Positions 17,704 through 40,413 of a DNA stretch of 64,000 nt are shown here, piece after piece (position 1 is the stretch's first letter; every line of letters begins with the position of its first letter). A program made the position numbers and the translations under genes. The DNA comes from an uncultured Desulfobacterales bacterium (GTDB lineage: Bacteria > Desulfobacterota > DSM-4660 > Desulfatiglandales > HGW-15): contig CAYVDE010000004.1 of the NCBI GenBank assembly GCA_964450535.1, positions 9,083 through 73,082 on the forward strand, written 5' to 3'. The notes below the pieces were generated by a model. It was not told the origin of the DNA. It worked only from the letters and a program-made list of their open reading frames with translations, and did not search any database.

Positions 17704-18963
17704 ATGAAGTCATATAAGACGGTGAACCACCGGGATGTTCCTCTGTTCAAGGATGTGCCTGATGAGGATTGGAACGACTGGAAGTGGCAGTTCCGGAATA
17801 CTATTCGAGACCTCAACGCCCTTGAGAAGATCATTCGCATAGATGAGGACGAGGGGCGTGACCTCGAGAGAGTCCTTAAGACCTTCAGAATGAGTATCAC
17901 GCCTTACTATGCCTGCCTGATGGATCGTGAATACAGGCGCGGCTCCGTAAGGCTTCAAGGCGTGCCGAGCATTCACGAACTGGCCTACGATCCCGACGAT
18001 CACGAAGACCCCCTGGATGAGGACGTGGACTCCCCGGTCCCCGGCATCACCCACCGCTATCCCGACAGGGTCCTGTTCCTGGTCACCCGCATCTGCTCCA
18101 TGTACTGCCGTCACTGCACGCGGAGGCGCATGGTCGGTTCACAGGACGAGCATTTGAGCGGCAAGGACATGGAAAGGGCTTTTGCTTACATCGAGGATCA
18201 TTCTGAGATCCGTGACATACTGATTTCAGGAGGGGATCCTCTGGTCCTTGACGACGAGTCCCTTGAGGCAATACTTAAACGCCTGCGCAGGATCGATCAC
18301 GTGGAGATCATACGAATCGGCAGCCGCACGCCGGTGGTCCTGCCCCAGAGGATCACGGAAGACCTGGTAAGCATGCTGCGCAGGTATCATCCTCTATACC
18401 TTAACACGCACTTCAACCACCCGGCCGAGATAACCCGGGAGTCCAGGGACGCCTGTGCACGGCTCGCAGATGCGGGCATTCCCCTGGGCAACCAGACAGT
18501 CCTCTTGAGGGATGTCAACGACTGCCCGTACATTATGAAAAAACTGGTTCACGAACTCCTCATGATCCGCGTGAAGCCTTACTACATTTACCAGTGCGAC
18601 CTTTCCAGGGGCATAGCGCACTTCAGGACGTCCATCACCAAGGGCATGGAGATTATAGAAAACCTGCGCGGTCACACCACGGGCATGGCCGTGCCCACAT
18701 TTGTGGTCGACGCCCCGGGCGGTGGCGGTAAGATTCCTGTCATGCCGAATTATATCCTCTCACAGGGCGACCGCCGTCTCGTGCTTCGCAATTACGAGGG
18801 TGTGATCACGACCTACACGCAGCCTGAGAACGTTTTTTCGGATTGCGGTCATTGTAACATCTGCGAGGATGAACGATATAAGCCCCTGGACGGGGTGGCG
18901 AAACTGCTTGCCGGGGAAAAGCTTTATCTCGAGCCCGCGGAACTCAAAAGGCGCAGGAGATAG
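17704..18963 (+). CDS. kamA: L-lysine 2,3-aminomutase (radical SAM/PLP)
   Basis: The cluster motif CSMYCRHC is at nt 18094-18117. ISGGDPL, the PLP-lysine block VVDAPGGGGK and a C-terminal Zn Cys cluster are also present. Acidic residues sit at both positions I recall as binding the lysine epsilon-amine in LAM (the D in VND and the D in VVDAP). Confidence 0.9.
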   Translation: MKSYKTVNHRDVPLFKDVPDEDWNDWKWQFRNTIRDLNALEKIIRIDEDEGRDLERVLKTFRMSITPYYACLMDREYRRGSVRLQGVPSIHELAYDPDDHEDPLDEDVDSPVPGITHRYPDRVLFLVTRICSMYCRHCTRRRMVGSQDEHLSGKDMERAFAYIEDHSEIRDILISGGDPLVLDDESLEAILKRLRRIDHVEIIRIGSRTPVVLPQRITEDLVSMLRRYHPLYLNTHFNHPAEITRESRDACARLADAGIPLGNQTVLLRDVNDCPYIMKKLVHELLMIRVKPYYIYQCDLSRGIAHFRTSITKGMEIIENLRGHTTGMAVPTFVVDAPGGGGKIPVMPNYILSQGDRRLVLRNYEGVITTYTQPENVFSDCGHCNICEDERYKPLDGVAKLLAGEKLYLEPAELKRRRR

Positions 18964-18985
18964 TGAAAACTGAAAAGGAGTGAAC

Positions 18986-20230
18986 ATGGAGGAAAAACTG
19001 AGGCTGGAAGAATCGGAAAGGCTCTATCATGAGGCCCTCGACCTCGTTCCGGGTGCAATCCTGGGAATTAGAAGACCTTACAATTTTGTGCCCGGCGAGT
19101 ACCCCGTATTTTTCGAATCCGCAAAAGGGGGACGCGTCACGGACGTTGACGGCAATGAGTACATCGACATGCTCTGCGCCTACGGCCCCATCATCATCGG
19201 CCACAGGGAGGAGGAGATCGACAACGCCGTGATCGATCAGATGCGGAACAAAGGGTTCTGTTTTTCCCTGACACAACCCATGCAGAACAACCTGGCGCGG
19301 AAGATGCGCGAGTTGATACCGTCAGCGGAAATGAGCCTTTTTCTCAAGACAGGATCCGACGCGACGACCGCCGCAATCCGGATCGCCCGGGGGCACACGG
19401 AGCGGATGAAGATCGCTCGGTGCGGTTATCACGGGTGGCACGACTGGTGTGTTGAGGTCAAGGGAGGCATCCCTAAGAAGCTCTACGAGGATATCTACGA
19501 ATTTCACTATAATGAGTTGGATGAACTCGAAGACCTCATGAAGGTCCATGGGGACGACATGGCGGCGATAATAGTGACGCCTGTCGGGCACCCGCTGGCC
19601 GAGAAGGTGCAGGAACCGGAACCCGGGTTTCTTGAAGGAGTGAAGACCCTGGCCGAGAAGTACGGGGCGGTCCTGATCTTCGACGAGATTCGAAGCGGGT
19701 TTCGTTTCGGCCTGGGCGGGGCGCAAAAGGAGTACGGCATTACGCCCGACCTTTCCGTGTTCGGCAAGGCCATGGCCAACGGCTATCCTATAAGCGCCGT
19801 CGTGGGCCGAAGGGAGGTCATGATGGCGGCTGCGGACCGGGTTTTTATCAGCTCGACCTTTTTCCCCAACAGCCTGGAGCAGGTGGCCGCCATTAAGACC
19901 ATCGAGATCCTGGAACGGGACCGGATCCTTGAAAAGGTCTGGGAAAAGGGGCGGCGCTTAGGCGAGCAGATCGAACGTATAGTCAAGGACAGCGGGGTGC
20001 CGGTTGAGTTCTCCGGGGCCCCCCTGATGCCATTCATCACGTTCCCGAAAGACAAAGACGGAAGATACAAGCAGCTGAGGACCGAGTTCTACACCAGGGT
20101 CATCCGTCGAGGGGTGTTCCTGCAGCCCTATCACCACGGGTATGTGGCATACCGCCATAAGGATGAGGATCTTGATTATACGGCCTCGGTTATTCGAGAG
20201 TCCCTCGAAGAACTGAGGTCGCTGGCCTGA
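18986..20230 (+). CDS. Class III PLP-dependent aminotransferase/aminomutase (glutamate-1-semialdehyde 2,1-aminomutase-like)
   Basis: DEIRSGFR and the PLP-lysine block SVFGKAMANGYP are present, and the protein is collinear with the GSAM family. The ATG at 18986 is preceded by AAAGGAG. Confidence 0.85.
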   Translation: MEEKLRLEESERLYHEALDLVPGAILGIRRPYNFVPGEYPVFFESAKGGRVTDVDGNEYIDMLCAYGPIIIGHREEEIDNAVIDQMRNKGFCFSLTQPMQNNLARKMRELIPSAEMSLFLKTGSDATTAAIRIARGHTERMKIARCGYHGWHDWCVEVKGGIPKKLYEDIYEFHYNELDELEDLMKVHGDDMAAIIVTPVGHPLAEKVQEPEPGFLEGVKTLAEKYGAVLIFDEIRSGFRFGLGGAQKEYGITPDLSVFGKAMANGYPISAVVGRREVMMAAADRVFISSTFFPNSLEQVAAIKTIEILERDRILEKVWEKGRRLGEQIERIVKDSGVPVEFSGAPLMPFITFPKDKDGRYKQLRTEFYTRVIRRGVFLQPYHHGYVAYRHKDEDLDYTASVIRESLEELRSLA

Positions 20231-20357
20231 TCCAAGAACCCCCGTTACCTAAAATTGCTTTTGGATTGACACATTTGAGCTCCTTAGATAGGTTTCGCCT
20301 TATCCCCCACCTTGCCGGTGGTCCAATGCCGGATTTTTCGAAAGGATTGCTAAGACC

Positions 20358-22808
20358 ATGCAAGACATCGCCTTTGAATCATCCGAGGAACAGGTCGAGG
20401 TGCCTGTGGCTGAACTCGTTGCGGAGGCCCTGGATTTCCTCAACAACTCAGCGGAAAGGCCTTTGGTGCCGGCTGAATTCATGGATCTTGTTGGAGACGG
20501 GGACGGTGGATCCAGGTTCAACCGGCTCCTTGAAGCCGCCGGCTTTGCAGATGACCCGGCCGGTTTCTTTGAATCCCTCATGAGAGCCGTAGCGCGGGGA
20601 GATGCCCGGGGCCGAGGGCCGTTTCAGATCAACGGAGTGGACATCCCCGGCCGGTTCATTGTGGCCCTCCTGGAGCGGACGGAGCCGGGGAATGAGTTCA
20701 TTTCCGTGCGGAATGTTGACCAACTGGAAGACATAGCCAAAATCCATATGGAAGAGGATAGGCGGGATGACATCCAGAAGGTCATAGACCTTTATCCTGT
20801 CAGGCTGTCAAGGCACACAGCCCGCCAGATGATGGTCTCGCGGGACGTGGCCTACCAGTACCTGCCTTTTGTGGAAGAGCTGGATCCTGTGGGACACGTG
20901 AACACCTGGATTGGACAGTTTCACCAGGGACTGCTGGAGCGGATGTATCGCAACCGCGTCATCTTTCTCCTGAACATGACTTGCCCGGTGTATTGCCGGT
21001 TCTGTTTCCGTAAGCACAAGGAGTCGCGAAATGAGACCTCCCCCACCCCGGATGAGGTCAGGGAAGCGGTGGCTTATGTAAATGCCTCGCCCACCATCAA
21101 GGAGATTGTAATCACAGGCGGGGACCCGTTTCTCAATAAAAAGAACATGGAGGTGGCAATCGATGGTCTCAGAGATGTCCCTCACGTCAAGACACTGCGG
21201 CTCGCCACCCGGTCCATTGCATACTACCCGCACCTTTTCCTTTCCAACGACGGTGCCTGGCTCAGCTACCTCAAGCGGAAGAACCTCGAGTTGGAGGAGA
21301 AAGGGAAGCGAATAGAGGTTGCCACCCACTTCATCCATCCGGATGAGGTGTCCCCGGACAGCCTGGAGATCATTTCCGAGCTGGTCCAAAGCGGCATACA
21401 GGTCTACGTGCAGACTCCCTTCCTCAATGACTGCAACGATCGGGGTCCCGAACTCGCTGAACTCTTCAGCAGCTTGAGGGGCGCCGGTGCCGAGATGCAC
21501 TATATCTACATTCCCTGCAGCCCGATTCACGGAAACAGCATTTACTGGGCCCCGCTTTCCAAGGGCATAGAGGCCGGCATTTACCTTAGAGCCCACGTTT
21601 CGGACCGGGCCATTCCAAGGATCTGCACGGCCACGCCCATCGGAAAAATGGACTGGAACAGCAGCGGCTGGGCCGTTGGGCGGGACCGGGAAAACGAGAA
21701 CTTCATATGGATCCGCTCCCCTTACACCCCGGACTACTTCAACGCCTTCGCCCCTGTTGCGAATGAACTGGAGAACGTCCGCGTCAACGACGAAGGGACC
21801 CTCGATGTAAAATACATGGCCCAGATAGGCGACGATGCGCTTTTCGCCGGTTCAAGGGTCCCGAGGCATCCTCTGAACGGAAAGACCGATCCCGGACTCC
21901 TGAATACCGTTCGCGCTGAGGGATTAAAGGACCAGCGATTCGCTCGTCCGGTTGTCTCTTCCGGTGTGCAAGGGGTTGTGCGGGTCCACGAGACACGGGC
22001 GGAGCTGGACATTGACCGCTTTAAGGCCGGAATAGATTATATTCGAAGGAACGGGCACATCACCGACGTGGTTGTTGCGGGGAAGCGGGACGGGATCGAC
22101 AGCTTGAGGGAGGTTCGGGATATTGTCAAGCACCTCCGCGACATTTCCCATGTCAATTCGGTCAGGCTTCGAAGCCTCGCATTCGCCGAAAACCCGAGTG
22201 CTTACACCCGCAGTGTTATCCGCGAACTGGCCGAACTGAACAGATTGACCGTGACAAGGCCCCTCCGGCTCGAGATCGAGACATTGTTTTTTCATGGCGA
22301 CGAATTTCTGGATGAGCACAAGAGGAAGGCCGCCCTGCTGCGAAGAAAAGGCATATCCGTTTACGTTAATACTCCGATTATTTCAGGAGGCAACGACAAT
22401 CCCGAAGAGATCCAGCGGGTGGCTTATTTGTGCAGGGATACAGGTCTTGAATTTCATCACGTTTACGCCTCCGGCCATCCCTTGCAGACGTCCCTGAACG
22501 ACGAGCGCCCCTTGGACGTGGACGATGTCCTGGATATTGCCACACTTGTCAGACGTGACGGCAGTGGCCGGGAGATACCGGCATACATACTGCAGACGGA
22601 GCTGGGCGAGGTGGACTTCGGCCTCTCATCCAGATTTGTTGAACGTGAAGGCGGGCTTTGGGCCCGGTTGCTCCCATATGACCTGGCCTACTTTCGGGCC
22701 ATGGACCCTGAATACAACTGGCCTGAAGGTGTGATAACAGACGAGAACGGCTGTCCGGTGGTTCCGGTGCCGGGTCTCGTTTCCAACACTGGGTTCATGG
22801 TGTCCTGA
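20358..22808 (+). CDS. KamA-family radical-SAM protein, 816 aa, with tandem KamA-fold modules (the second is degenerate)
   Basis: Module 1 has CPVYCRFC (Cys209/213/216, nt 20982-21005), ITGGDPF, HVKTLRLATRS, VATHFIHPDE, VQTPFLNDCND and TPIGK. Module 2 (from about nt 21970) repeats the same block order (ITDVVVAGKRDG, HVNSVRLRSLAF, LEIETLFFHGDE, VNTPIISGGNDN, ILQTELGEVDF). It has no Cys triad and no lysine at the PLP position. Confidence 0.8.
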   Translation: MQDIAFESSEEQVEVPVAELVAEALDFLNNSAERPLVPAEFMDLVGDGDGGSRFNRLLEAAGFADDPAGFFESLMRAVARGDARGRGPFQINGVDIPGRFIVALLERTEPGNEFISVRNVDQLEDIAKIHMEEDRRDDIQKVIDLYPVRLSRHTARQMMVSRDVAYQYLPFVEELDPVGHVNTWIGQFHQGLLERMYRNRVIFLLNMTCPVYCRFCFRKHKESRNETSPTPDEVREAVAYVNASPTIKEIVITGGDPFLNKKNMEVAIDGLRDVPHVKTLRLATRSIAYYPHLFLSNDGAWLSYLKRKNLELEEKGKRIEVATHFIHPDEVSPDSLEIISELVQSGIQVYVQTPFLNDCNDRGPELAELFSSLRGAGAEMHYIYIPCSPIHGNSIYWAPLSKGIEAGIYLRAHVSDRAIPRICTATPIGKMDWNSSGWAVGRDRENENFIWIRSPYTPDYFNAFAPVANELENVRVNDEGTLDVKYMAQIGDDALFAGSRVPRHPLNGKTDPGLLNTVRAEGLKDQRFARPVVSSGVQGVVRVHETRAELDIDRFKAGIDYIRRNGHITDVVVAGKRDGIDSLREVRDIVKHLRDISHVNSVRLRSLAFAENPSAYTRSVIRELAELNRLTVTRPLRLEIETLFFHGDEFLDEHKRKAALLRRKGISVYVNTPIISGGNDNPEEIQRVAYLCRDTGLEFHHVYASGHPLQTSLNDERPLDVDDVLDIATLVRRDGSGREIPAYILQTELGEVDFGLSSRFVEREGGLWARLLPYDLAYFRAMDPEYNWPEGVITDENGCPVVPVPGLVSNTGFMVS

Positions 22809-22965: not shown

Positions 22966-24009
22966 ATGATATCGAACTTCGGCCCTTTCCCGGCCCGCGA
23001 AGACGGGCTCATAACGGTGGACCTGCATGCCGCCGGGGAACCCCTGCGCCTTATGGTGGGCGGTCTGCCCGACATCCCCGGAGGCACCTTGCAGGAGAAG
23101 AGGCTCTACCTCCAGGAAAATCTGGACTGGGTCCGGCTGCTTCTCACCAGGGAGCCTCGAGGCCACCGGGACATGTTCGCGGCTGTGGCCACCGAGCCCG
23201 CCGGCCAAGAGGGGAGCTTCGGAGTCGTGTTCATGGATGCCAGGCGTTATCCCTACATGTGCGGCCATGGTATCATCGCCGCCGTCACGGCTTTCATTGA
23301 GCTGGGCTGGACCAAGCCGCCCGTGAACCCCCCGTTTCTTACGGTGGACACTCCAGCAGGGCCTGTTCGCGCCTTTCCCCGCGTCCTCCGGAATGGAGCG
23401 GGAACGGTTCGCGTGGAATCAGTGGCTGTGGAGCTGGGTCCGGCCTTCGTATTTCAGCAGGAGCAGAAACTTTACCTGCCCGATTATGGGAGCGTCATGG
23501 TTGACGTGGTCTTTGCAGGCGGGTTCTTCGTGCTGGCGTCTGTCGAGCAGCTTGGGTTGACGCTCTCTTACGATCGTTTGCAAGAACTGGCCCGGCTGGG
23601 GATGGCCGTGATCGAGGAAGGGAACCGTAGCCTTAGGGTCAGGCACCCGGTGCTCGATCACATCCGTACTGTTGACGTGGCCGCCTTCTACGATCCGGCC
23701 GGTCATGAGGAGCAGAGAGGTAAAGGATTCGTGGTACTGGGTGAGGGGCATGTTGACCGGTCACCTTGCGGCACCGGGACCTCGGCCAAGATGGCTCTGC
23801 TTCACCGGCAGGGGCTCCTGCCGACAGGGAGTGTGTTCGAGAACTCCGGGCTCACCGGCACGACATTTATGGGGCGGATCGTTCGCGAGACCGAAGTCGG
23901 GGGGATTCCAGCAGTGGTCCCTGAGATTCGGGGGTCGGCCTGGATTACTGGATTTCATCGGTTCGTGACGTCCCCGGACGATCCGTTTCCAGAGGGGTTT
24001 CTGGTATAA
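22966..24009 (+). CDS. Proline racemase superfamily enzyme (Cys/Cys type: proline racemase or 4-hydroxyproline 2-epimerase)
   Basis: The motifs DLHAAGEPLRLMVGG, YPYMCGHG and DRSPCGTGTSA are present. Both catalytic positions are Cys. Confidence 0.85.
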   Translation: MISNFGPFPAREDGLITVDLHAAGEPLRLMVGGLPDIPGGTLQEKRLYLQENLDWVRLLLTREPRGHRDMFAAVATEPAGQEGSFGVVFMDARRYPYMCGHGIIAAVTAFIELGWTKPPVNPPFLTVDTPAGPVRAFPRVLRNGAGTVRVESVAVELGPAFVFQQEQKLYLPDYGSVMVDVVFAGGFFVLASVEQLGLTLSYDRLQELARLGMAVIEEGNRSLRVRHPVLDHIRTVDVAAFYDPAGHEEQRGKGFVVLGEGHVDRSPCGTGTSAKMALLHRQGLLPTGSVFENSGLTGTTFMGRIVRETEVGGIPAVVPEIRGSAWITGFHRFVTSPDDPFPEGFLV

Positions 24010-24011
24010 AA

Positions 24012-25433
24012 ATGAATCTATTGCGTCCATTTCGACGACTTGATGACAGCGACTGCAGCAAGCTTCACGAGGCGTCTCTTCACATTCTGGAGAGGACCGG
24101 GGTCCGGCTTCATCACCCCCCGGCGGTCCGGCTGCTGGAGAAGGCCGGCGCGCGGATATCAGAAGGGAACCGCGCTCGCATCCCATCAGGCCTGGTGGAG
24201 CGGGCCCTTGAGACCGCCCCCTCTACGATCACTCTTTTCAATCGTCATGGTGAGCCGGCTGTTGAGGCAGGCGGCTGTCGTTCGTATTTCGGCACCGGAT
24301 CGGATTGCCTGAACGTGCTTGATCACCGGACCGGAGAACGCCGCCGGGCCCGAATAAAGGACGTAATAGAAGGTGTGACGCTCTGTGACGCGCTTGATAA
24401 CGTAGACTTCGTAATGAGCATGTTCCTTCCTTCTGATGTTCCCCGCATGACGGCGGACCGATTCGCCATGCAGGCCATGCTCGAGCATACGACCAAACCC
24501 CTGGTGTTTGTGACCACGGATCCGGCAGGGTGCGAGGACGCCGTGGCCATGGCTGAAGTCGTGGCAGGAGGAGAGGATGCACTGCGGGAAAGGCCTCTTG
24601 CAGCCTGCTACATCAACGTGACAAACGGGCTGCAGCACAACCGGGAGGCCCTGGAAAAGCTGATGTTCCTCTCCGGCAAAGGCCTTCCCGTGACATACGT
24701 GCCGGTTTCTCTGGGCGGTGCGAGCGCGCCCGTCACAGTGGCCGGCGGCATGGCGTTGTGGAACGCCGGTTGCCTGGCCGGTTTAGTGATCGGGCAGTTG
24801 AACCGGCCCGGGTCCCCCTTCATCACGTCCGGGTGGGGAGCCAGCGCCCTTGACATGCGGACAGGTCTCAGCCCGTATGTGGAGCCTGAAAAGCAGTTCA
24901 TAGCCCAGGAACTGGCCCACTTCTACGGCCTTCCAATGTTCGCGTTCGGCGGCATTTCGGACTCCAAGCAGGTGGACGCGCAGGCGGGTGCCGAGGCTGC
25001 CCTCACTCTCCTTGCGAACGCCCAGGCCGGGAGTCACCTGGTGCACGACATGGGGTATCTCGAGTCTGGTCTCACCGGATCTCAGGCCCAGCTGGTGTTA
25101 TGTGATGAGTTGGTGGGGTGGGTACGCACGGCACTGTCCCCTTTGGAGATCACCGAAGAGACCCTGGCGCTGGATGTGATCGATGAGATCGGACCCGACG
25201 GGCAGTATCTTGACAGCCTGCACACCCTTCATCACTACCGGGACCGCTGGTATCCCGAGGTCATGGACCGGTCCGGGCATGAATCCTGGGTCGCCCGGGG
25301 CGGCAAGGACCTGGGCCGAAGGGCCGCGGAGCGTGTGGAGGCCCTCCTGGCGGAACACAGACCGGAACCCCTTCCGGACCAAGCCGCAGAACACATACAA
25401 GCCATTGTCGATCGCGCGGCAAAGAGATCTTAG
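24012..25433 (+). CDS. MttB-superfamily protein (trimethylamine methyltransferase family, non-pyrrolysine type)
   Basis: This is an uninterrupted 473-aa ORF with a family-typical N-terminus (LHEASLHILERTGVRLHHPPAVRLLEKAGARI) and typical length. It starts 2 nt after the upstream racemase gene. Confidence 0.75.
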   Translation: MNLLRPFRRLDDSDCSKLHEASLHILERTGVRLHHPPAVRLLEKAGARISEGNRARIPSGLVERALETAPSTITLFNRHGEPAVEAGGCRSYFGTGSDCLNVLDHRTGERRRARIKDVIEGVTLCDALDNVDFVMSMFLPSDVPRMTADRFAMQAMLEHTTKPLVFVTTDPAGCEDAVAMAEVVAGGEDALRERPLAACYINVTNGLQHNREALEKLMFLSGKGLPVTYVPVSLGGASAPVTVAGGMALWNAGCLAGLVIGQLNRPGSPFITSGWGASALDMRTGLSPYVEPEKQFIAQELAHFYGLPMFAFGGISDSKQVDAQAGAEAALTLLANAQAGSHLVHDMGYLESGLTGSQAQLVLCDELVGWVRTALSPLEITEETLALDVIDEIGPDGQYLDSLHTLHHYRDRWYPEVMDRSGHESWVARGGKDLGRRAAERVEALLAEHRPEPLPDQAAEHIQAIVDRAAKRS

Positions 25434-27052
25434 CGGCTGAACACCACCCGCCCGTCGAAGATGGTCATGTCCACGGAGGTCTCGATGATCTCCATGGGGT
25501 CCACGGAGAAGATGTCCCTGTCCAGGACGACCATGTCCGCCCGTTTTCCGGGTGAAATTGTTCCCAGTTCACCTGTAACGCCGTTCGCCTCCGCCGGTGC
25601 CAGGGTATAGCCGCGGACCGCTTCCTCCACGCTTATCCTTTCACGGGGGTACCATCCCCCTTCGGGGGAGCCGTCCCGCCGTTGACGGGTGACGGCCGCG
25701 TGGATGCCCACGAGCGGTCGCGGATCACAGACCGGCGAATCAGAGCTTAGCATGAGCGGAATACCGGCATCCAGCATGCTCCGATACGCGTAGGTCCATT
25801 GTCCCATTTCTCCTACGCAACTATCTATCATGTGGATGTCCAGAATCAAGTTATGTGGCTGCACACAACCCACCAGGTTTAGACGCGCCATGCGGTAAAG
25901 GTCCTCAGGCCGAATCATCTGTAGGTGCTCGATTCGGTGTGGGACGGCGGGGCGTGATGCGGGATCAATATCCTCAAAGGCTTTATCCCGTTTCACCGCC
26001 TCGAAAACTGAAATCAATTCCCGGTTGGCCCGGTCTCCTATTGCGTGAACCATGACGGCGAGCCCGGCCCGGTTCGCTTTAGTGATCCGTTCACGTAAGG
26101 CTTCCGGCGGGTAGAGGCTCATGCCCACACCACCATCCAGGTATGGGTCGATCATCCATGCGGTGCGCGCCCCCATTCCGCCGTCCATGAAGTATTTGAG
26201 GTGTCCCAACCTGAGTCTATCGTCTCCTAAGCCTGTGCGGATACCCAGGGCTTCCGCCTCATCCAGGCGTTCACCAGGAAGGCTCACCCAGCACCGCAGG
26301 TCCAGCTTTCCTTGCTCCCTGATCTGCTGCCAGGCGCGAAGGACGGGCGGCCCTTCCAGTCCTCCCATGAGCCGGACGTCGAATATCCCGGTCAACCCAT
26401 AGGAGTGGACTTCGGGAATGCCGTCCAGCATGGCCTCGTATACCCCGGCGGTGCCTGCCCTGTCTATGGCCGCCTTGATCAGGTTGGGAGCCAACTCACG
26501 GAGGATGCCGGTGGCACTTCCCGAGGTGTCCCTTGCAATGACGCCGGCGGGCGGGTCGGGCGTGCTGTCGTCGATGCCGGCCTCCTTCAGAGCGACTGAG
26601 TTGACCGTGGCCAGGTGAAGGTCACATCGCCAGAGCGCCACGGGGTGATCCGGCGCTACTCGGTCCAGGTCATGGCGTTCGGGCATGTGTTCGACTTCCC
26701 AGTCCGACTCGTTCCAGCCCTGTCCCACGATCCAGGCTCCCTGTGGAAGGTTGCGGGCGGCCTCCGCTACACGGTTTAAGAGGTCCTCCAGCGAGACCGT
26801 GTCGGCCAGGTTGAGCTGCTTCCGTCCCATGGACCAATCATAATAGTGGAAGTGGCTGTCCGTGAAGCCGGGCAGGACAAGCCTTCCTTCTAAGTCCTGG
26901 GTCTTGGTTCCGGATCGGGAGAGCGACGCTATTTCAGAGTTATCTCCTACGGCCAGGATCCGGCCGTTGCCCATGGCCACTGCCTGGGCCAGGGGGCGGG
27001 AAGGGTCCATGGTTCGAATGACTGCGTTTTGGAAGATGCGTTCCGGTTTCAT
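25430..27052 (-). CDS. Amidohydrolase (amidohydrolase-3 / YtcJ-like metal-dependent hydrolase)
   Basis: The N-terminal metal motif PGFTDSHFHY is present. It is 540 aa long with family-typical architecture. Confidence 0.8.
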   Translation of the reverse strand: MKPERIFQNAVIRTMDPSRPLAQAVAMGNGRILAVGDNSEIASLSRSGTKTQDLEGRLVLPGFTDSHFHYYDWSMGRKQLNLADTVSLEDLLNRVAEAARNLPQGAWIVGQGWNESDWEVEHMPERHDLDRVAPDHPVALWRCDLHLATVNSVALKEAGIDDSTPDPPAGVIARDTSGSATGILRELAPNLIKAAIDRAGTAGVYEAMLDGIPEVHSYGLTGIFDVRLMGGLEGPPVLRAWQQIREQGKLDLRCWVSLPGERLDEAEALGIRTGLGDDRLRLGHLKYFMDGGMGARTAWMIDPYLDGGVGMSLYPPEALRERITKANRAGLAVMVHAIGDRANRELISVFEAVKRDKAFEDIDPASRPAVPHRIEHLQMIRPEDLYRMARLNLVGCVQPHNLILDIHMIDSCVGEMGQWTYAYRSMLDAGIPLMLSSDSPVCDPRPLVGIHAAVTRQRRDGSPEGGWYPRERISVEEAVRGYTLAPAEANGVTGELGTISPGKRADMVVLDRDIFSVDPMEIIETSVDMTIFDGRVVFSR

Positions 27053-28086
27053 GGAAGAAAGCCTCCGGGAAAGGGATCGTCGGGTTCGATGTAAAAGGAG
27101 TGTAGGCCTGTTATGTGTGCGCTTCCACGGATTTCGATCACCACAGCAGGCACACCTCCTACATCTGTTTCAGTGACAATGCGCGCCTTGAACACTGTCC
27201 CGAGCGGGCTCGTGTTTTCGTAGATCCGGTCGATCCCGATTTTACCCCGCTGGTATAAAAGCGTCAGCTTGGCAGCCGTACCCGTCCCGCAAGGTGACCT
27301 GTCCATATGTCGTTCGCCGTATATCACCATGCTTTTCCCGCAAAGTGGACGCTCTGAATCTTCCTCGTAGAACTCCACCACATCCACCGTTGATACCTCA
27401 GGCCGCGTCGGATGGTGAACCTCCAGTTGTTGATCGGCGCTTTCAATGATAGTCATGCCCAGGTCTACGAGCCGCCTCGTGTTTTCCGGGGTGAGTGAAA
27501 GGCCTGTTCGTCGGATCGGGACCATCACGAAAAATCCACCCACGCAGACCGTGTCCACTTCTATACTCCCGAGACCCGGTACATCCAGAGTTTGGTCCAG
27601 GCCGTAAACGAATGACGGCACAGCCTGAATGGCAACCGACTCCACTTGCCCTTCACGGATACGAGCAAGGGCATCCATCGGACCGGAGGGAGTGTCTATG
27701 GTAATCGCGGTTTCGGGATCGCGCCGGTCGATGACCTCCGTGTCGAGAAGAGTGGTGACCGCGCCGATGGTGGCGTGCCCGCAGAGATACGGATAGCGCC
27801 GGGCGTCCATGTATATGAGACCGAAGGACGCCCCATCGGTCACCGGGTCTGTGATGGCGGCGGCTATCATGTCCCGGTGCCCTCTTGGTTCCCGCGTGAG
27901 CAGGAGACGCACATGGTCCAGGTTTTCCATGAAGTAGCGTCGTTTCTCCGCCATTGTGGAACCGGGTACTTCGCCGAATCCGCCCACAATAAGCCGGGTC
28001 GGTTCACCGGCGGTGTGGGAGTCAATGGTCACAAAAGGTTCGGGGAACCTTCGGGCCAGGGTCAGCCTTGCGCGATTGATATCCAT
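27049..28086 (-). CDS. Proline racemase superfamily enzyme (Cys/Cys type), paralog of 22966-24009
   Basis: The motifs DSHTAGEPTRLIVGG, YPYLCGHA and DRSPCGTGTAA are present. The shared block LLLTREPRGHRDM and the C-terminus DDPFPxGFL match the paralog. Confidence 0.85.
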   Translation of the reverse strand: MDINRARLTLARRFPEPFVTIDSHTAGEPTRLIVGGFGEVPGSTMAEKRRYFMENLDHVRLLLTREPRGHRDMIAAAITDPVTDGASFGLIYMDARRYPYLCGHATIGAVTTLLDTEVIDRRDPETAITIDTPSGPMDALARIREGQVESVAIQAVPSFVYGLDQTLDVPGLGSIEVDTVCVGGFFVMVPIRRTGLSLTPENTRRLVDLGMTIIESADQQLEVHHPTRPEVSTVDVVEFYEEDSERPLCGKSMVIYGERHMDRSPCGTGTAAKLTLLYQRGKIGIDRIYENTSPLGTVFKARIVTETDVGGVPAVVIEIRGSAHITGLHSFYIEPDDPFPGGFLP

Positions 28087-28293: not shown

Positions 28294-29406
28294 TTACCTT
28301 GTGGCGTTATCTCGGTGCAAAAGACCGCAGTCAATGGGAGGCGCGTGAATCAGGACGGAATCGCCCCGGCGGAACGGCTTGGAGCTGATTATGCTGATGG
28401 CGTGAAGTACGGTCCCGTTTTCAAGTTCCACGAAGTAGCTTACTTCACCCCCCATGTAACTGCGATCTTTGATTATGGCCTTGAAAGAGTTGATTTCAGG
28501 GGCCGAAGCGCCCTCCTTGTCCGGAAGGATGTCGAATTTCTGGGCGCGTATGACCAGTTCTACGGGCTCCCCCTGTTTCCACTCTTCAAGGTTAAGGGTG
28601 TAGAACTCGTTGCCGTCCTGGACTCGTACCTTGATGTAGTCCCCGTCGCGGCCCAGCACCTCGCCGTCCATGAAGTTGGAGTGTCCCAGAAAATCGGCTA
28701 CAAAGTGGTTCACCGGCTTGTTGTATACCTCCTCGGGATTCCCTTCCTGCTGCTTTCGCCCGTCCTTCATGACCACGATCTTATCGGACATGGACAGGGC
28801 CTCGCGCTGGTCATGCGTCACAAAGATGGTAGTCACGCCGAGTAACTGCTGTAGATTGTCCACCTCACGGCGCATCTCCTCACGAAGGTTCTCGTCCAGC
28901 GCGGAAAGCGGTTCGTCCATGAGCAGGACCACAGGCTCGATGACAATGGCGCGGGCCAGGGCTATCCGCTGCTGCTGACCTCCTGAAAGCTGGGAAGGCA
29001 TCCGGTTTTCCACGCCGGGCAGCCGCACCATTTCCAGGGCGCGCTGAACACGTTCCCGGGTCTCCTGCTTGGGTACGTTACGGTACTTGAGGCCGAACGC
29101 CACATTCTCGAAAATGTTCTTGTGGGGAAAAAGCGCGTAGTTCTGGAATATCATCCCCAGGTTCCGCTTGTGGATGGGGGTGTCGTTCACACGCTTTCCC
29201 TTTATGAAGATATCCCCTTCGGTCGGTGTCTCCAGCCCGGCGATCATACGCAGGATGGTGGTCTTGCCGCAGCCCGAAGGCCCGAGGAGTGTGACGAGTG
29301 ATCCCTCCTCGAACTCGAGGTTCATCCGCTCCACCGCCACAACCTTGTCGAAACGCTTGTAGACCCCCTTGAGCTCAACCGCTAGGGACTTGCCTTGGTT
29401 ATTCAC
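28294..29406 (-). CDS. ABC transporter ATP-binding protein (PotA-like, with a C-terminal TOBE-like domain)
   Basis: Walker A (GPSGCGKTT), signature (LSGGQQQR) and Walker B (LLMDEPLSALD) are present. The start is GTG, preceded by AGGAGAG. Confidence 0.9.
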   Translation of the reverse strand: MNNQGKSLAVELKGVYKRFDKVVAVERMNLEFEEGSLVTLLGPSGCGKTTILRMIAGLETPTEGDIFIKGKRVNDTPIHKRNLGMIFQNYALFPHKNIFENVAFGLKYRNVPKQETRERVQRALEMVRLPGVENRMPSQLSGGQQQRIALARAIVIEPVVLLMDEPLSALDENLREEMRREVDNLQQLLGVTTIFVTHDQREALSMSDKIVVMKDGRKQQEGNPEEVYNKPVNHFVADFLGHSNFMDGEVLGRDGDYIKVRVQDGNEFYTLNLEEWKQGEPVELVIRAQKFDILPDKEGASAPEINSFKAIIKDRSYMGGEVSYFVELENGTVLHAISIISSKPFRRGDSVLIHAPPIDCGLLHRDNATR

Positions 29407-29535
29407 CTCTCACCGCTCTCCTGATCGGCGTTGGTCGGGAGTGCCGTCCCGATCCGCCGGTAGGGAAGGGGACGGCACAGGTTTCACGAACTGTCCAGGC
29501 TATGCCGTAAGGCCCTGCCTGGACAGTTCCTTATA

Positions 29536-30696
29536 TCAGCCTACTCTGATCCGGTCCCATTTCTCCGTCCACTCGAGCTCGTGCTTGTTCCAGTATTCGG
29601 GTTTGGCGAACAGGTAGCCCTCGAGCGTGCCTGTGGGATCAAAGGCAGGCATCTTCTGTACCTCAGGGGGCATCTCCACTTTGGTGGGGTCCAGGCTCGG
29701 CGGGTAGCCCTGGGCCTTGGCAACAGCGATGGCCGCCTCGGGTTCCAGCATGAAGTTGAGCAGCTTCTGGGCCACTTCCAGGTCTGTTCCCTTGAGCACG
29801 AACATGTACTCCATCCAGGAATAGGTGCCCTTGGGGGACAGGTAGCCTATGGGGTGGCCTTCCTGCTGCAGCGCGCCGACGCGGCCGGACCAGGCCACCG
29901 TGGCATAGATCTCATCGCCGGCCAGAAGGCTCATGAGTTCGGCGCCGGATTCCCAGTACTTTTTCATCAGCCCCCGCTGTTCCGTCAGTGCGTCCCACAC
30001 CGCGTCTAGGTCGGTGATGTTGTTGGGGCTCTGTCCCGTGTGAAGGGCCGCATACCACATGTTGGTCCTGTAATCCGCCCCCCAGCTTCCCAGCTTACCT
30101 TTGAGGTCCTTGTCCCAGAGCAGAGCCACTCCCAGTTTCTCGGCCTTTTCCTTTGAGATGTGCTTGGTGTTGTAAGCTATTCCGGTCTGGCCCAGGTCGT
30201 AGGGAACGGCTGAAAGCTTGCCGTCGCTCAGCCCACGGAGGGCGTTTATCATGGGTAGCATAACCTTCTCAAGGTTGGGGATCTTGGCCTCATCAAGGAC
30301 AACCCCGAAACCCAGGCCCATGTACCGGGCATAGTCGAACACTGCGCTCAGGTGGGCTATGTTGAACTCACCACCCGGCGGGTAGGAGGCCTTGACCTGG
30401 GTCAGAAAGGCGTCCATGCCCGTAAAGGCTGCGTCGACCACCTCGATACCGGTTTCCTTGGTAAAGGGCTCGAATGCATACTTGCGAAGGGCCTCCGAAG
30501 TGGTGCCGCCCCAGGAATCCACCCGGATTGACTTGGAGGCACGAGCGCTGCGGGTCAGCATGCCGAACGGTCCTCCCACCAGCCCGGCCGCGGCCCCGGC
30601 GATACCGAGGTACTTGATGAAGTCGCGGCGGGTGATCTCGCCGTCCCTGTAAAGCGCTGCCACGGTTTCCAGTTGTTCGTTCAAATCCCTGCTCAT
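29536..30696 (-). CDS. ABC substrate-binding protein (PotD/PotF-type) with a Tat signal
   Basis: A twin-arginine signal (ITRRDFIKYLGIAGAAAGL) is present, and the length and composition resemble SBP_bac_8. GGGAGG precedes the ATG. Confidence 0.8.
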   Translation of the reverse strand: MSRDLNEQLETVAALYRDGEITRRDFIKYLGIAGAAAGLVGGPFGMLTRSARASKSIRVDSWGGTTSEALRKYAFEPFTKETGIEVVDAAFTGMDAFLTQVKASYPPGGEFNIAHLSAVFDYARYMGLGFGVVLDEAKIPNLEKVMLPMINALRGLSDGKLSAVPYDLGQTGIAYNTKHISKEKAEKLGVALLWDKDLKGKLGSWGADYRTNMWYAALHTGQSPNNITDLDAVWDALTEQRGLMKKYWESGAELMSLLAGDEIYATVAWSGRVGALQQEGHPIGYLSPKGTYSWMEYMFVLKGTDLEVAQKLLNFMLEPEAAIAVAKAQGYPPSLDPTKVEMPPEVQKMPAFDPTGTLEGYLFAKPEYWNKHELEWTEKWDRIRVG

Positions 30697-30813
30697 GGCT
30701 TACCTCCCTTTCATACAGTAAAGTTGGCGATCGACAGGAGTTATGCGCCCACCGGTTCTCCGGCACCGGATAGCCTCCGTACGGCGTGTGTCCTGTCAGG
30801 GTTAATGTATCAA

Positions 30814-31605
30814 CTATTTTCCCCTGGCGAAGCGACGAGAGAGGTACCCCGCGAGCAGGGGTGTTGAGATTGTCAATATAATCATTACGGTCCCCAGGGC
30901 GTTGATCTCAGGGCTTATAGAGGTGCGCAGCATGCTGAAGATCTTTACCGGGACCGTCTGATTCTGGGCCGTGGCCCAAAAAAGTGTGGCCGTTACGTCA
31001 TCGAATGAGATGGTGAAAGAAAACAGCATCCCCGCCAGTATGGCAGGCATAAGCAGCGGCAGCGTGATCTCTTTGAAGGCCTGGAAGGGGTTTGCGCCGA
31101 GGCTCATGGCGGCCTCCTCATAAACGCGCTTTATGCCCACCAGCCTGGCCTGAACCACCAGCAGGACATAGGGCAGGGTGAGGACCACGTGTCCGATGAG
31201 CAGCAACGCAAAGCTCTTGGGCTGCTGGAGCCACCGGATGAACAGTAGGAGGGCCACGCCCAGCACCACCTCCGGGATCATGATCGGGGCCAGGAGCAAG
31301 GTGTTCAGGCTGTTCTTGCCGGGAAACTCGTAACGCACAAAGGCCATTGCCGCAGGAATCGCAATGGTGGTGGTCATTACGGCCGTCAGAGACCCCAAGA
31401 CGAGGCTGTTCTTGAAGGCGTTTATAATGGTCTCGTTCTGGGCGAGCTTGATGTACCATCGGAGGCTGAGTCCCTCCATGGGGAAGGACCCGAACTGCTG
31501 CGGGTTGAAAGACAGTATGACCACCGCCACAATGGGGGCGAACATCCAGATGTAGACCATGATCGTGAAGAGGCGTATCAGTGACCAGCCCGTTATTCTT
31601 GGCAT
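30814..31605 (-). CDS. ABC transporter permease (PotC-like)
   Basis: It is a multi-TM protein with the EAA loop EEAAMSLGANPFQAFKEITLP. Confidence 0.85.
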   Translation of the reverse strand: MPRITGWSLIRLFTIMVYIWMFAPIVAVVILSFNPQQFGSFPMEGLSLRWYIKLAQNETIINAFKNSLVLGSLTAVMTTTIAIPAAMAFVRYEFPGKNSLNTLLLAPIMIPEVVLGVALLLFIRWLQQPKSFALLLIGHVVLTLPYVLLVVQARLVGIKRVYEEAAMSLGANPFQAFKEITLPLLMPAILAGMLFSFTISFDDVTATLFWATAQNQTVPVKIFSMLRTSISPEINALGTVMIILTISTPLLAGYLSRRFARGK

Positions 31606-31615
31606 TGTGAATAAC

Positions 31616-32476
31616 TCACTGCAGGCTCTTGAAGATCTGGTTGATCCCCAGGTAGCGGTTATAGGTGTACACGATTACGCCCAGCAGTGCCAGGAGGATC
31701 GTGCTGATGGCCGAACCAAAGGGCCAGTCAAGGGTCCCTACGACCCGTTTGAAGATCAGGTTGGCGATCATGTCGTTCCCCGGACCTCCCAGAATCATGG
31801 GTGGAAGGTATGTGCCGGATGTCAGGACAAAGACCAGGAGGCAGCCTGCGCTCACCCCCGGGAGGCTGAGGGGCAGGGTGACCTCGCGGAACGCCTGCCA
31901 CTCCGTGCATCCAAGGCTTCTCGCCGCCTCGAGTAGGTTCTTGTCTATCCCTTCCAGGCTCACATAGATGTTGAGGATCATGAACGGGAGCAGGTACTGA
32001 ATCAGGCCCATCAGAACTGCACCCTCATTGTAGAGCATGGCCAGGGGCCTGTCCATGAATCCGATTCGCATGAGAACGTGGTTGATCAGGCCGGTGTCAC
32101 CCAGGATGTTGATCCAGCTCAGGGTACGGATGATGAAGCTGATCCAGAAGGGAAGCATCACCAGGATCAGTAGAAACGGTTTGTACCTGCTCTCCGTTCG
32201 GTAGAAGAAGTACGCGGGGATGTACCCCATGACCAGGCAGAGAACGACCGTCTCGAGGGACACGCGTATGGTTCGAATCAAGAGGGAGGGGTAAAAAAAA
32301 TCTTCGAAGAACTTGGCGTAGTTCCCGAACTGAAACGCCGGAATGTCAGCCCCGCTCGGCGCCCTGAGCCAGAAGCTGTAGACCACTATGAAGCAGACAG
32401 GAATCACAAGCAGGAAAAAGATGGCACTCAGGGCAGGAGAAAGAAGAGCGGCGGGTTTCCAGAGCTTGTTTTCCAT
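31616..32476 (-). CDS. ABC transporter permease (PotB-like)
   Basis: It has the EAA loop EAARSLGCTEWQAFREVTLP. I chose the start at MENKLWKPAALLSPAL (ATG at 32476) instead of the track start at 32632. Confidence 0.85.
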   Translation of the reverse strand: MENKLWKPAALLSPALSAIFFLLVIPVCFIVVYSFWLRAPSGADIPAFQFGNYAKFFEDFFYPSLLIRTIRVSLETVVLCLVMGYIPAYFFYRTESRYKPFLLILVMLPFWISFIIRTLSWINILGDTGLINHVLMRIGFMDRPLAMLYNEGAVLMGLIQYLLPFMILNIYVSLEGIDKNLLEAARSLGCTEWQAFREVTLPLSLPGVSAGCLLVFVLTSGTYLPPMILGGPGNDMIANLIFKRVVGTLDWPFGSAISTILLALLGVIVYTYNRYLGINQIFKSLQ

Positions 32477-32808
32477 GTCTCGCCGAAGGTGTATCGGGTT
32501 CCTGTTAGAAAAGGATGCCGGCGCTGCCGAATTCGAGCGCCGTTTGAGGAGGCTAAAACCATGCCTGACTCCTGTCAGGCTTGAAAGACCGTCCACACTA
32601 CGCTGAACCGGTCCCGGCGCGCACCTGGTCACCCATTGCCGCCTTAGACGTAATCATATAGTGGACATAACGCCAAGAGTCAAGGACAATTGAGGCTCTT
32701 CCAGGCATCGCTCTTGTCCAGAAAGCCTGTCCCGGTTCAAGATCGCCGTATTTTTGTAGTGCAGGGAGATAAACCACCCCCTCGATGCGGACTCTGGTTA
32801 CCTCTGCC

Positions 32809-34620
32809 CTACCTTCCCAGAATCCGCTTCCCCAGAGCTGAGTAAATGAATCGCCGGAGTTTTTCCCTGTCCCTTCGCCCCGGCGGCTTGGTCCCTGAAA
32901 TATCGAGAGTTCGGAGAAGGCCGGAAGCGGCGATCATTTCCATTGCATGGTGGCTTTCCCTGTTTGTAAGGCCGTCCCTGCCGTTGTCGGCGGCCGCCGG
33001 GTTGAAGCGGACGTAAACGCCCCGGTTCCCGGAAGCCGCCCTGCGTAAGGCCCGGCGGGTCACCTCCCGGATACCCAGGAGATCCACATCCTCCATAGTG
33101 TACGATTCTATTCTGAACCTGCGGATGATTTCCGCGTCCTTTTCCTCCGCGTCCCGCAGGCAGAGAAATATCAGGCTTTCCGGTGAAACGCGTGCGAACG
33201 GCTTATGTTCTGATGGTTCCGATGAAGCCGTCGTGCTCGAGGGAGGGGCCAGGTCCTCCCGGCCCAAAAGGTCGAATGGAAAGTCGGGGAAGGGGCTGAT
33301 CCAGATCATCCCCGGCGGGTCGCCTGCAGCGGCCATGGCTGCATACAGGGGTTTTGTAAGAGGTTCGGTGCCGCCGGCGATTATGCAGTCCTTGTCCGGC
33401 CGCAACTCGGGTATTTCCGGTTTGAGCGCTTTAATAAAAATTCGTTCCGCGTAGCCGAGCTTCTCCAGTTCGTTCCACTTTTCCTGATTCCTGAACAGAG
33501 GATCGTCCCCCAGAAAAACGATGCGCACCCCGTGGGGGGAAAAGCGGTCGCCACCAACAGGGCGCTTTTCCACATACGACGAGGTCATGGCCGATAGAAG
33601 AGCCGAGTAGGAGAGGTTGAAGGTAATGACGTCTCCCAGATCCAGCTCTCCCGGATATTCAGTCACATCGAGGATCAGGTGGTCACTCGAGGCGCCCAGA
33701 ACGGAAATCCCCGGCTCCGCCGGTTCGAGCCCGCTTACATCCACATCTTCCCGCCCGATATTGAGAATCGCCCGGAGCATCTCCCCTTTGTCAGAAAATT
33801 CGGGTGTTCCGCCGAATGCGTCCTGGCCTGTCTCGCCGATCGGCATCGACGGTTTCCTTTTCAGTTCGATGACTTCCCCGGAGAGGAGAAACGCATCCTG
33901 GACCGTTCCCGGCCAGCATGTCCTGTTGATGGTCTCACGCCCCAGAAGGATGGCCTCGCCTATCCGGAGATGATTTATTTCCGGGGGCATTCTTCCGGAA
34001 GCAAGAAGCGGCAGGGATGAGGAGTTTCCGCCTGAAATAGTTTCGATCGGGATTCCGAACGTGTCCTCTATCCTGCGGGCCCAGTCGACCAGTTCCTGCA
34101 TGTTTTTTCGCGTCGGAATTACCCCGCCGTAACAGGTGAGGTTCGTGCCGATTCCCTGGATCCTGACGCCGGGAAGGTCGATGATCTCACGCACGGCCGC
34201 CATCAGGTCATCGGGCCAGAAACCTTCCCTCAGGTCCCCCAGGTCCAGCATCAGGATGATCCTGTGAATGATGCCGCGTTCTTCCGCCGCCTGGGAGAGG
34301 GCCCGGATAGCCGGGAGTTCCGAATTGAGGCTCACGTCAACCGAATTGACGATCTCTTCGGCCGCGGATACAGGCGGAATACGCAGAAGCATGATCGGCT
34401 CCAGAATTCCTCCCGCCCGGAGCCGGTGGATGTTTTCCATCCTGGATTCCCCGATCCCCGAGACTCCGCCCATGATCAGCGCTTTCGCGACTTGCGGCAT
34501 GCCGCAAGTCACTTTGGTCACGCCGGTTACCGTGACTCCATAACCAGCGCAGAGATTAGTGACCGCACGTGCGTTCGAGATAATTTTTTCAAGATCGATG
34601 GTCACGGCCGGTCCGGACAT
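32809..34620 (-). CDS. orr: Ornithine/alanine racemase-fold PLP enzyme fused to a degenerate arginase-fold C-terminal domain
   Basis: The N-terminal ~355 aa is an alanine-racemase-fold protein (VTGVTKVTCG lysine block). It sits in the position that orr occupies in the conserved ornithine cluster. The C-terminal ~245 aa is collinear with arginase/agmatinase blocks, but the Mn-ligand residues are replaced. Confidence 0.75.
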   Translation of the reverse strand: MSGPAVTIDLEKIISNARAVTNLCAGYGVTVTGVTKVTCGMPQVAKALIMGGVSGIGESRMENIHRLRAGGILEPIMLLRIPPVSAAEEIVNSVDVSLNSELPAIRALSQAAEERGIIHRIILMLDLGDLREGFWPDDLMAAVREIIDLPGVRIQGIGTNLTCYGGVIPTRKNMQELVDWARRIEDTFGIPIETISGGNSSSLPLLASGRMPPEINHLRIGEAILLGRETINRTCWPGTVQDAFLLSGEVIELKRKPSMPIGETGQDAFGGTPEFSDKGEMLRAILNIGREDVDVSGLEPAEPGISVLGASSDHLILDVTEYPGELDLGDVITFNLSYSALLSAMTSSYVEKRPVGGDRFSPHGVRIVFLGDDPLFRNQEKWNELEKLGYAERIFIKALKPEIPELRPDKDCIIAGGTEPLTKPLYAAMAAAGDPPGMIWISPFPDFPFDLLGREDLAPPSSTTASSEPSEHKPFARVSPESLIFLCLRDAEEKDAEIIRRFRIESYTMEDVDLLGIREVTRRALRRAASGNRGVYVRFNPAAADNGRDGLTNRESHHAMEMIAASGLLRTLDISGTKPPGRRDREKLRRFIYSALGKRILGR

Positions 34621-40402: not shown

Positions 40403-40413
40403 TTTCAGGCCTC

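Follow-up and report, generated by a model that had tools for sequence, protein, structure and literature searches.

The 64,000-nucleotide (nt) stretch of an uncultured Desulfobacterales bacterium analyzed here (contig CAYVDE010000004.1, positions 9,083 to 73,082; called the window below) carries a gene for an 816-amino-acid (aa) protein in which the fold of lysine 2,3-aminomutase (LAM, or KamA) occurs twice. We refer to this tandem KamA-like radical S-adenosylmethionine (SAM) protein as TKAM. Its gene, at 20358..22808 on the + strand (stop codon included), is a single open reading frame (ORF) of 816 codons that starts with ATG and runs uninterrupted, as read from the ORF list and its translation and matched by >1000 homologues of the same length. 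The first copy of the fold retains the catalytic signatures of the KamA family, and the second has lost them while remaining under purifying selection. The explanation that we favor, with moderate confidence, is that TKAM is a single-chain pseudo-dimer of a KamA-type radical SAM/pyridoxal phosphate (PLP) amino-acid 2,3-aminomutase. It builds on a duplication, a pattern of kept and lost motifs, conservation, selection and gene context, all of which were observed directly. An earlier reading of the gene from its letters alone was essentially right: the family is a conserved, unnamed variant of KamA aminomutases with a fused pseudo-enzyme twin.

Four segments make up the protein: an N-terminal domain (aa 1–115; 20358..20702, +), module 1 (aa ~116–500; 20703..21857, +), a poorly conserved linker (aa 501–540; 21858..21977, +) and module 2 (aa ~541–816; 21978..22805, +). 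A sequence-only reading of the gene had proposed two collinear copies of the KamA block order within one polypeptide, and both comparisons of the two halves bear this out. By BLASTP of aa 1–545 against aa 545–816, aa 232–480 matched aa 552–797 with 27% identity over 253 columns (E = 1e-22). Profile-profile comparison of the modules by hhalign, with profiles built from 60 family members, gave 99.7% probability over 255 columns (E = 7.8e-26). The canonical KamA encoded two genes upstream (17704..18963, +) also matched both halves of TKAM in BLAST, with E values of 2e-30 and 3e-07. The N-terminal domain has no counterpart in LAM and was modelled as a folded alpha/beta unit; a Pfam scan found no family for aa 1–115, and this is the least conserved region of TKAM, with 2.6% of columns at least 98% conserved. 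The single lead for this domain is a weak sequence match of aa 30–104 to PDB entry 6B2V, 'SorB' (E = 0.004).

Module 1 matches NCBIfam KamA-family models over aa 116–434, LAM (PDB 2A5H) in phmmer (E = 2.4e-23), and the radical SAM superfamily model PF04055 over aa 208–353 (48 bits against a threshold of 29.5). Its alignment to LAM runs from the helical lid through six beta/alpha units and stops just before the PLP lysine; a beta-rich extension that canonical KamA does not have (aa 436–487) ends the module. The motifs that the sequence-only reading had placed here are all present at those positions, with codon coordinates confirmed. The cluster triad Cys209/213/216 and Arg218 lie in CPVYCRFC-F-R (20982..21011, +; CPVYCRFC itself at nt 20982–21005), which was aligned to 2A5H and checked by codon. 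Arg218, two residues past Cys216, occupies the position of LAM Arg134. GGDP (aa 254–257; 21117..21128, +), the SAM-binding GGD/E motif, aligns with SGGD of LAM. Lys430 in TPIGK (21645..21647, +) was matched by position to the GGGGK motif of LAM and KamA, at the PLP-binding Lys337. In LAM, this conserved lysine forms the PLP aldimine, and Lys430 would be its counterpart. The triad, Arg218, GGDP and Lys430 were invariant in the 60-sequence set, which spans 56–87% identity, and Lys430 was also invariant in a set of 46. The module 1 motifs were kept in clusters as far as 37% identity.

In module 2, the alignment to module 1 starts at VRVHETR (nt 21978), facing FRKHKESR of module 1, immediately past the position of the third cluster Cys, so that the entire cluster loop is missing. 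Also lost are both glycines of GGD, H324, C387 and the PLP lysine, which is replaced by Glu751 (K430->E751; 22608..22610, +; 98% conserved). The earlier proposal of a second copy lacking the Cys triad, with Glu at the PLP-lysine position, is thus upheld by both hhalign and column conservation. By contrast with these losses, 34 strongly conserved residues of module 1 persist in module 2, position by position, among them R542 (equivalent to R218), H544, D578, R603, E639, E649, Y669, P673, N679-D680, E698, H700, R732, S736, R738, P741, T747, G750 and D753. Module 2 also has invariant features of its own (E641, GSGRE at 735–739, and Y743), and it repeats the fold of module 1 including the C-terminal beta extension. 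From these residues, module 2 most likely cannot bind a cluster or form a PLP aldimine.

We compared rates of change by the Nei-Gojobori method between the window gene and six close orthologues. The ratio of nonsynonymous to synonymous substitution rates (dN/dS) was 0.04–0.08 in module 1, 0.13–0.18 in module 2, 0.14–0.22 in the N-terminal domain and 0.15–0.54 in the linker. This indicates that module 2 is under purifying selection, though more relaxed than module 1. If module 2 were a relic in decay, or the long ORF an artefact of fusion or assembly, the loss of all cofactor-binding signatures from module 2 and its rate of evolution, 2–3 times that of module 1, would fit. The observed dN/dS is far from neutral, however, and 77 of the 255 aligned module 2 columns (30%) are at least 95% conserved. 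Both modules were present in all of the ~14 full-length clusters found in a library grouped at 50% identity; these clusters reach down to 37% identity and span several phyla. The length and both modules are kept in hundreds of independent assemblies, complete genomes included. We regard a relic or artefact as extremely improbable, and as refuted as far as sequence analysis reaches. Selection is what these data demonstrate; module 2 may act as a pseudo-enzyme or dimer mimic.

Structure prediction placed both halves in the same fold. The full-length AlphaFold2 model had a mean predicted local distance difference test score (pLDDT) of 86.8 and a predicted template modelling score (pTM) of 0.91, the latter suggesting a confident fixed arrangement of the two modules. 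In a fold search of the PDB, its sole significant neighbor was LAM 2A5H (E = 3e-15). Module 2 modelled alone reached pLDDT 91.9, and its top Foldseek match was again 2A5H (E = 3.8e-13, TM score 0.65), followed by further radical SAM enzymes, SkfB, NifB and PFL activase among them. The C-terminal half is therefore predicted to be a cluster-less radical-SAM/KamA fold. The possibility that this half is an unrelated domain already described was ruled out by these matches, by its homology to module 1 and by a Pfam scan of module 2, which gave no match.

In the mechanism that we propose, module 1 would be the catalyst. Cys209/213/216 would hold a [4Fe-4S] cluster that cleaves SAM, GGDP would assist SAM binding, Lys430 would carry PLP, and Arg218 would bind the alpha-carboxylate of the substrate. 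The 5'-deoxyadenosyl radical would take a hydrogen from C3 of the amino acid bound to PLP, with a shift of the amine from C2 to C3. In LAM, the cofactor channel is reportedly closed by the partner subunit, which packs against its far end (the back). Module 2 would be an obligatory dead partner, most likely standing in for the second subunit of an ancestral homodimer, and it may also supply residues for binding substrate or ligand. Covalent fusion would take over from the zinc-mediated link between subunits, which the TKAM family lacks. We infer catalysis, this structural role of module 2 and the class of substrate from the observations above together with the gene context below.

The residues that persist in module 2 bear on a different role for it, as a site that binds a ligand, serves regulation or receives a second substrate, for instance by holding an allosteric effector or the distal half of a substrate that is long or two-headed (e.g. 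an N-acyl diamino acid). Module 2 retains the R542/H544 pair, of which the Arg would bind the substrate carboxylate in module 1, and many barrel-interior residues; it has its own invariant E641, GSGRE and Glu751 (98%); and two amide hydrolases (Amidohydro_3 and an M23-like protein) and an acetyltransferase encoded nearby suggest N-acylated substrates. The residues common to both modules may serve folding only, and no tool that we applied points to a ligand. We consider this role rather less probable; the retained Arg/His pair and the invariant motifs of module 2 itself nevertheless keep distal-substrate or effector binding a live alternative. There is a broader and tentative proposal, which we hold to be possible short of probable: TKAM would be a new kind of radical SAM aminomutase, a homodimer fused into an asymmetric chain whose dead module was recruited to recognize the distal part of a substrate outside the known KamA range. 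The pathway so defined, for uptake and catabolism (or for an osmolyte), would be new and widespread among anaerobic bacteria of sediments. Candidate substrates under this proposal would be N-epsilon-acetyl-lysine, N-epsilon-acetyl-beta-lysine, another derivatised diamino acid or an ornithine derivative, and TKAM would work in the pathway together with the PotD-type importer, the proline-racemase/amidohydrolase pair, the AblB-type acetyltransferase and the M23-like protein described below.

Returning to the pseudo-dimer explanation, we asked which amino acid the retained site of module 1 might accept. TKAM fell short of every curated KamA-family cutoff: TIGR03820 (AblA), its best NCBIfam match, gave 156.9 bits against 525.4; TIGR04468 (arginine 2,3-aminomutase) 151.9 against 600; TIGR00238 (the general KamA subfamily) 141.8 against 199.2; TIGR04368 (glutamate 2,3-aminomutase) 139.3 against 650; and TIGR03821 (EpmB) 113.7 against 369.3. 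None of the loci compared showed an epmA or efp context. The LAM_C domain (PF12544), at 129 bits in the neighboring KamA, had no match in TKAM, and what we take to be the LAM zinc ligand, Cys268, aligns with Arg362. Of the residues in the LAM pocket, Asp293 and Asp330 are said to hold the lysine epsilon-ammonium, and Arg134 the alpha-carboxylate. By both BLAST and HMMER, Ser388 (21519..21521, +) lies at the Asp293 position and Ala425 (21630..21632, +) at the Asp330 position, each at least 90% conserved among close relatives. The sequence-only reading had aligned a Cys with Asp330; the Cys it meant, Cys423, lies two residues off, and its point that the position is non-acidic stands. Glutamate 2,3-aminomutase reportedly has Lys and Asn at the two specificity positions, a signature that TKAM, with Ser and Ala there, does not share. 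Because the lysine-binding Asp pair is replaced and a true KamA lies in the same gene string, free L-lysine is probably not the substrate of TKAM, in line with the earlier suggestion of a substrate other than L-lysine.

These comparisons also bear on whether TKAM is merely a long lysine 2,3-aminomutase, as its JGI automatic annotation has it, making beta-lysine for an AblB-type acetyltransferase or for lysine fermentation. AblA is its best NCBIfam match, and TKAM retains both the PLP lysine and a counterpart of Arg134. Among 48 genomes compared, the AblB equivalog (TIGR03827; 328.5 bits, cutoff 205.1) lay within 10 kb in 9 loci. In three of them (L005, L015 and L023), the AblB gene immediately precedes that of TKAM on its own strand, and the fetched locus contains no canonical ablA. 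Against this, the AblA score is 156.9 bits where 525.4 are required, both Asp residues that bind the epsilon-ammonium are replaced, and in ~10 loci a true KamA/AblA adjoins TKAM and would make it redundant. We therefore think it unlikely that TKAM is simply a longer LAM.

Failure at all curated cutoffs, the general subfamily included, together with the missing LAM_C/zinc domain and the additional N-terminal domain and second module, could instead mean that the KamA scaffold is reused for a radical SAM reaction different from the 2,3-amino shift, such as a 5,6 shift on beta-lysine or a PLP-independent reaction. The islands in which TKAM lies already hold KamA and the B12 aminomutases KamDE and OraSE, which would be consistent with this. 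However, neither the PLP lysine nor the carboxylate Arg varies, and every characterised KamA-family member is, to our knowledge, a PLP-dependent 2,3-aminomutase. Other chemistry thus appears to us quite doubtful.

With a 2,3-aminomutase retained as the preferred reading, the substrate is more likely lysine- or ornithine-related, or an N-acylated basic amino acid. A basic amino acid that is derivatised or shorter would fit loosely with the neutral Ser/Ala pocket, the acetyltransferase and amide-hydrolase neighbors and the polyamine-type importer. Ectoine, citrulline, proline betaine, meso-diaminopimelate and trimethyllysine were each considered and set aside, having no support past loose context. 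The substrate would be imported by the PotD-type transporter and passed into amino-acid fermentation or into beta-amino-acid routes (AblB/aminotransferase/amidohydrolase).

A search of 5.8 billion proteins with TKAM returned 1016 matches. The best 120 of the 1016 were 56–100% identical and nearly all full-length (816–867 aa), three being partials of ~738 aa. Public names of homologues were 'radical SAM protein' or an automatic 'lysine 2,3-aminomutase' only. In the 50%-identity library, the most distant clusters that we read still carry CPVYCRFCFRKHK, the GK lysine and the GE glutamate. The gene was found in 48 species-level genomes, the majority from Desulfobacterota and the others from Spirochaetia, Calditrichota, KSB1, Aminicenantes and Gemmatimonadota; homologues from Anaerolineales and Candidatus Vecturithrix came up in the protein search. 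The cultured hosts of the gene are Desulfospira joergensenii, Desulfopila sp. IMCC35008 and Desulfoferrobacter suflitae. The earlier impression that no ~800-aa tandem form had been characterised agrees with PDB sequence and fold searches, which gave only the 416-aa LAM, and with the NCBIfam scores above; literature searches for a tandem KamA architecture found no paper. Three other long KamA-like proteins of 700–784 aa (P0223, P0233 and P0260) have one KamA module each, so the tandem layout is specific to the TKAM family. Four candidate stand-alone module 2 genes (P0144, P0149, P0165 and P0186) resemble truncated gene calls, one starting at the internal Met487, and split versions were not established.

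The nearest relatives outside the tandem family are single-module proteins of ~370–410 aa that cover aa 115–487 with a C-terminal extension. Members of this sister family of ~375 aa (e.g. P0159, P0170, P0286 and P0331; from Myxococcota, candidate phyla and Pacearchaeota) are the closest sequence relatives of both TKAM modules. They share the C-terminal beta extension (W.R.PY...F...G) that is absent from canonical KamA, and like TKAM they score under every NCBIfam cutoff; unlike TKAM, they have one module only, with a complete Cys triad and PLP lysine. A hidden Markov model (HMM) of module 2 scored 114–122 bits on 5 of 7 sister proteins and 75–83 bits on the other two, whereas module 1 reached 102 bits and canonical KamA 50 bits. 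As the scores favor the sister family over canonical KamA, both modules appear to descend from this single-module subfamily. The simplest history that these scores suggest would be that a homodimeric enzyme was duplicated and fused, and that the cofactor sites were then lost in the second copy. Neighbors of the sister genes were unrelated in each case that we looked up and gave no functional hint.

In the window, TKAM is the middle gene of a five-gene row on the + strand, with gaps of 16, 127, 157 and 2 nt. The row begins with the canonical KamA/AblA-type lysine 2,3-aminomutase at 17704..18963 (TIGR03820, 599.8 bits, above the cutoff; LAM_C present). Immediately upstream of TKAM is a class-III aminotransferase resembling glutamate-1-semialdehyde aminomutase (18980..20230; PF00202, 187 bits; under all NCBIfam cutoffs), and immediately downstream is a proline racemase family protein, ProR1 (22966..24009; PF05544, 318.7 bits), with both catalytic Cys motifs. 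The last gene encodes an MttB-family methyltransferase homologue of the non-pyrrolysine type with no in-frame stop (24012..25433; PF06253, 316 bits). It begins 2 nt past the proline racemase gene and shares 4 nt at its 3' end with the convergent amidohydrolase gene; no corrinoid protein gene adjoins it in the window. A promoter/terminator scan of 17.0–25.6 kb gave counts at chance level, so the operon boundaries rest on the short gaps. Within the 127-nt gap between the aminotransferase and TKAM genes lies a weak terminator-like hairpin followed by ATTTTT (20315–20332, +), of a kind found overall at chance level. An Rfam scan of the whole window found no riboswitch or other RNA element.

On the – strand beyond the row, at 25430..28086, are a YtcJ-like Amidohydrolase_3 protein (540 aa; 25430–27052) and a second proline racemase, ProR2, which keeps both catalytic Cys and has a proline racemase as its best PDB match; this pair recurs beside TKAM elsewhere. 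It is followed by a PotA/PotD-type ATP-binding cassette (ABC) importer (28294..32632, –) that consists of an ATPase with a TOBE_2 domain, a binding protein with a twin-arginine translocation (TAT) signal (29536–30696) and two permeases. The permeases (30814–32632, –; ~25 loci) show 78–95% identity between genomes whose TKAM proteins are only ~55% identical, which is unusual for membrane subunits.

The wider surroundings of TKAM form a fermentation island for basic amino acids. Past the importer, the – strand encodes all of the oxidative ornithine pathway: a 603-aa fusion of ornithine racemase (Orr) with a C-terminal arginase-family domain (32809–34620; racem_Orr 436.8 bits, just below the cutoff of 480), a MutL-like protein (34620–36044), OraE (36041–38281), OraS (38278–38673), OrtB (38670–40172), OrtA (40097–40708) and Ord (40414–41487). 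The Orr-arginase fusion at the head of this pathway suggests a direct channel from arginine through ornithine to D-ornithine. Around a TrmB-like regulator (41690–42529), the ornithine genes diverge from a lysine-fermentation set on the + strand: KamD (42595–44319), KamE (44316–45062), Kce/BKACE (45065–45880) and a Kdd-like dehydrogenase (46910–47926). A 336-aa ORF between the latter two (45877–46887, +) had no Pfam match. The lysine-fermentation island explains the presence of the canonical KamA at 17704.

We then compared the neighborhoods of TKAM across the 48 genomes; the counts are lower bounds, many contigs being short. The PotD-type importer was the most frequent neighbor (~25 loci), followed by a gene directly downstream for a ~220-aa cytoplasmic M23-peptidase-like protein (23 loci, this window not among them), the amidohydrolase/proline-racemase pair (~15), a divergent IclR regulator (13), canonical KamA (~10, this window among them), the AblB-type beta-lysine acetyltransferase above its cutoff (9), an ornithine-aminotransferase-like gene directly downstream (8), a polar-amino-acid ABC system (7) and MttB (4). 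Apart from the window, MttB lies beside TKAM in L004, L010 and L014. Downstream clusters c30–c42 (regulators, transporters and an HMGL-like gene, two loci each) were uninformative. The M23-like protein (e.g. L016 5005–5670, L043 12424–13107 and 21 further loci) has intact HxxxD and HxH motifs, and in L043 its gene overlaps the TKAM gene by 4 nt. It matches the middle segment of NCBIfam PRK06148, whose members we take to be long kinase/M23/class-III aminotransferase fusions. We believe that it is probably the closest functional partner of TKAM.

In one complete Desulfobacteraceae metagenome-assembled genome, a DDAH/arginine-deiminase-like gene of the amidinotransferase superfamily lies between TKAM and the proline racemase (L005 12536–13411), a further tie to arginine/citrulline/ornithine metabolism. 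Beta-lysine is N-acetylated and transaminated in a known route (EC 2.3.1.264 and EC 2.6.1.65), and B. subtilis has a kamA-yodT operon. Near TKAM, the co-occurrence of KamA, AblB, a class-III aminotransferase and a deacylase-like hydrolase brings both to mind. Of this, PMC6522883 confirms only that the KamA and YodT proteins depend on SigE and are uncharacterised.

Several points weigh against the explanation that we favor. The surroundings of the cluster loop (aa 171–230) were modelled at pLDDT 42–72; this lowest confidence is expected there, because the cofactor is absent from the model. The specificity argument depends on two LAM positions taken from the literature. Ser388 is not kept in the most distant clusters and is His in P0132 and P0135, and Asp329 of TKAM (at the LAM Asn235 position) or other acidic residues could hold a shorter diamino acid. 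Finally, the Calditrichota, KSB1 and Aminicenantes genomes and one Gemmatimonadota genome showed no conserved TKAM neighbors, and the argument from context does not extend past Desulfobacterota and Spirochaetia to the whole family.

The textbook example of SAM serving as a reversible radical cofactor alongside PLP is provided by KamA-type enzymes, for which we know of only four established substrate specificities. To these, TKAM would add an abundant, unnoticed family of >1000 sequences from anaerobes that include sulfate reducers, spirochaetes and Calditrichota. Its active-site pocket differs, and its pseudo-dimer would be fixed and asymmetric. Probably by a new reaction, TKAM would form or use up a beta-amino acid when lysine/ornithine or compatible solutes are turned over anaerobically in sediments. 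The family would be a natural experiment on which half-sites an oligomeric enzyme needs, could serve as a one-gene scaffold for beta-amino-acid biocatalysis, and gives reason to correct automatic 'lysine 2,3-aminomutase' annotations. Its relevance is mainly to radical-SAM enzymology and to anaerobic amino-acid or osmolyte turnover.

LAM of Clostridium subterminale (PDB 2A5H) is the only solved relative of TKAM, whether the whole protein or module 2 is compared. It has in common with module 1 the CxxxCxxC triad, the GGD motif, the Arg past the third Cys, the PLP-lysine position and six beta/alpha units. TKAM differs in its double length, the extra 115-aa N-terminal domain, the missing LAM_C/zinc domain and the replacement of Asp293/Asp330 by Ser/Ala, and its cofactor-less module is fused in cis, whereas LAM is a homo-oligomer. 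The glutamate and arginine (BlsG type) 2,3-aminomutases and EpmB belong to the same family and have altered side-chain pockets, which indicates that the scaffold can be retuned; unlike TKAM, they are single-module proteins of ~320–420 aa. In the eukaryotic Dph1-Dph2 pair, an ancestral homodimeric radical SAM enzyme turned asymmetric, with the chemistry in one half. The likeness to TKAM is one of analogy only, as Dph1-Dph2 belongs to an unrelated fold and family and its halves are separate polypeptides.

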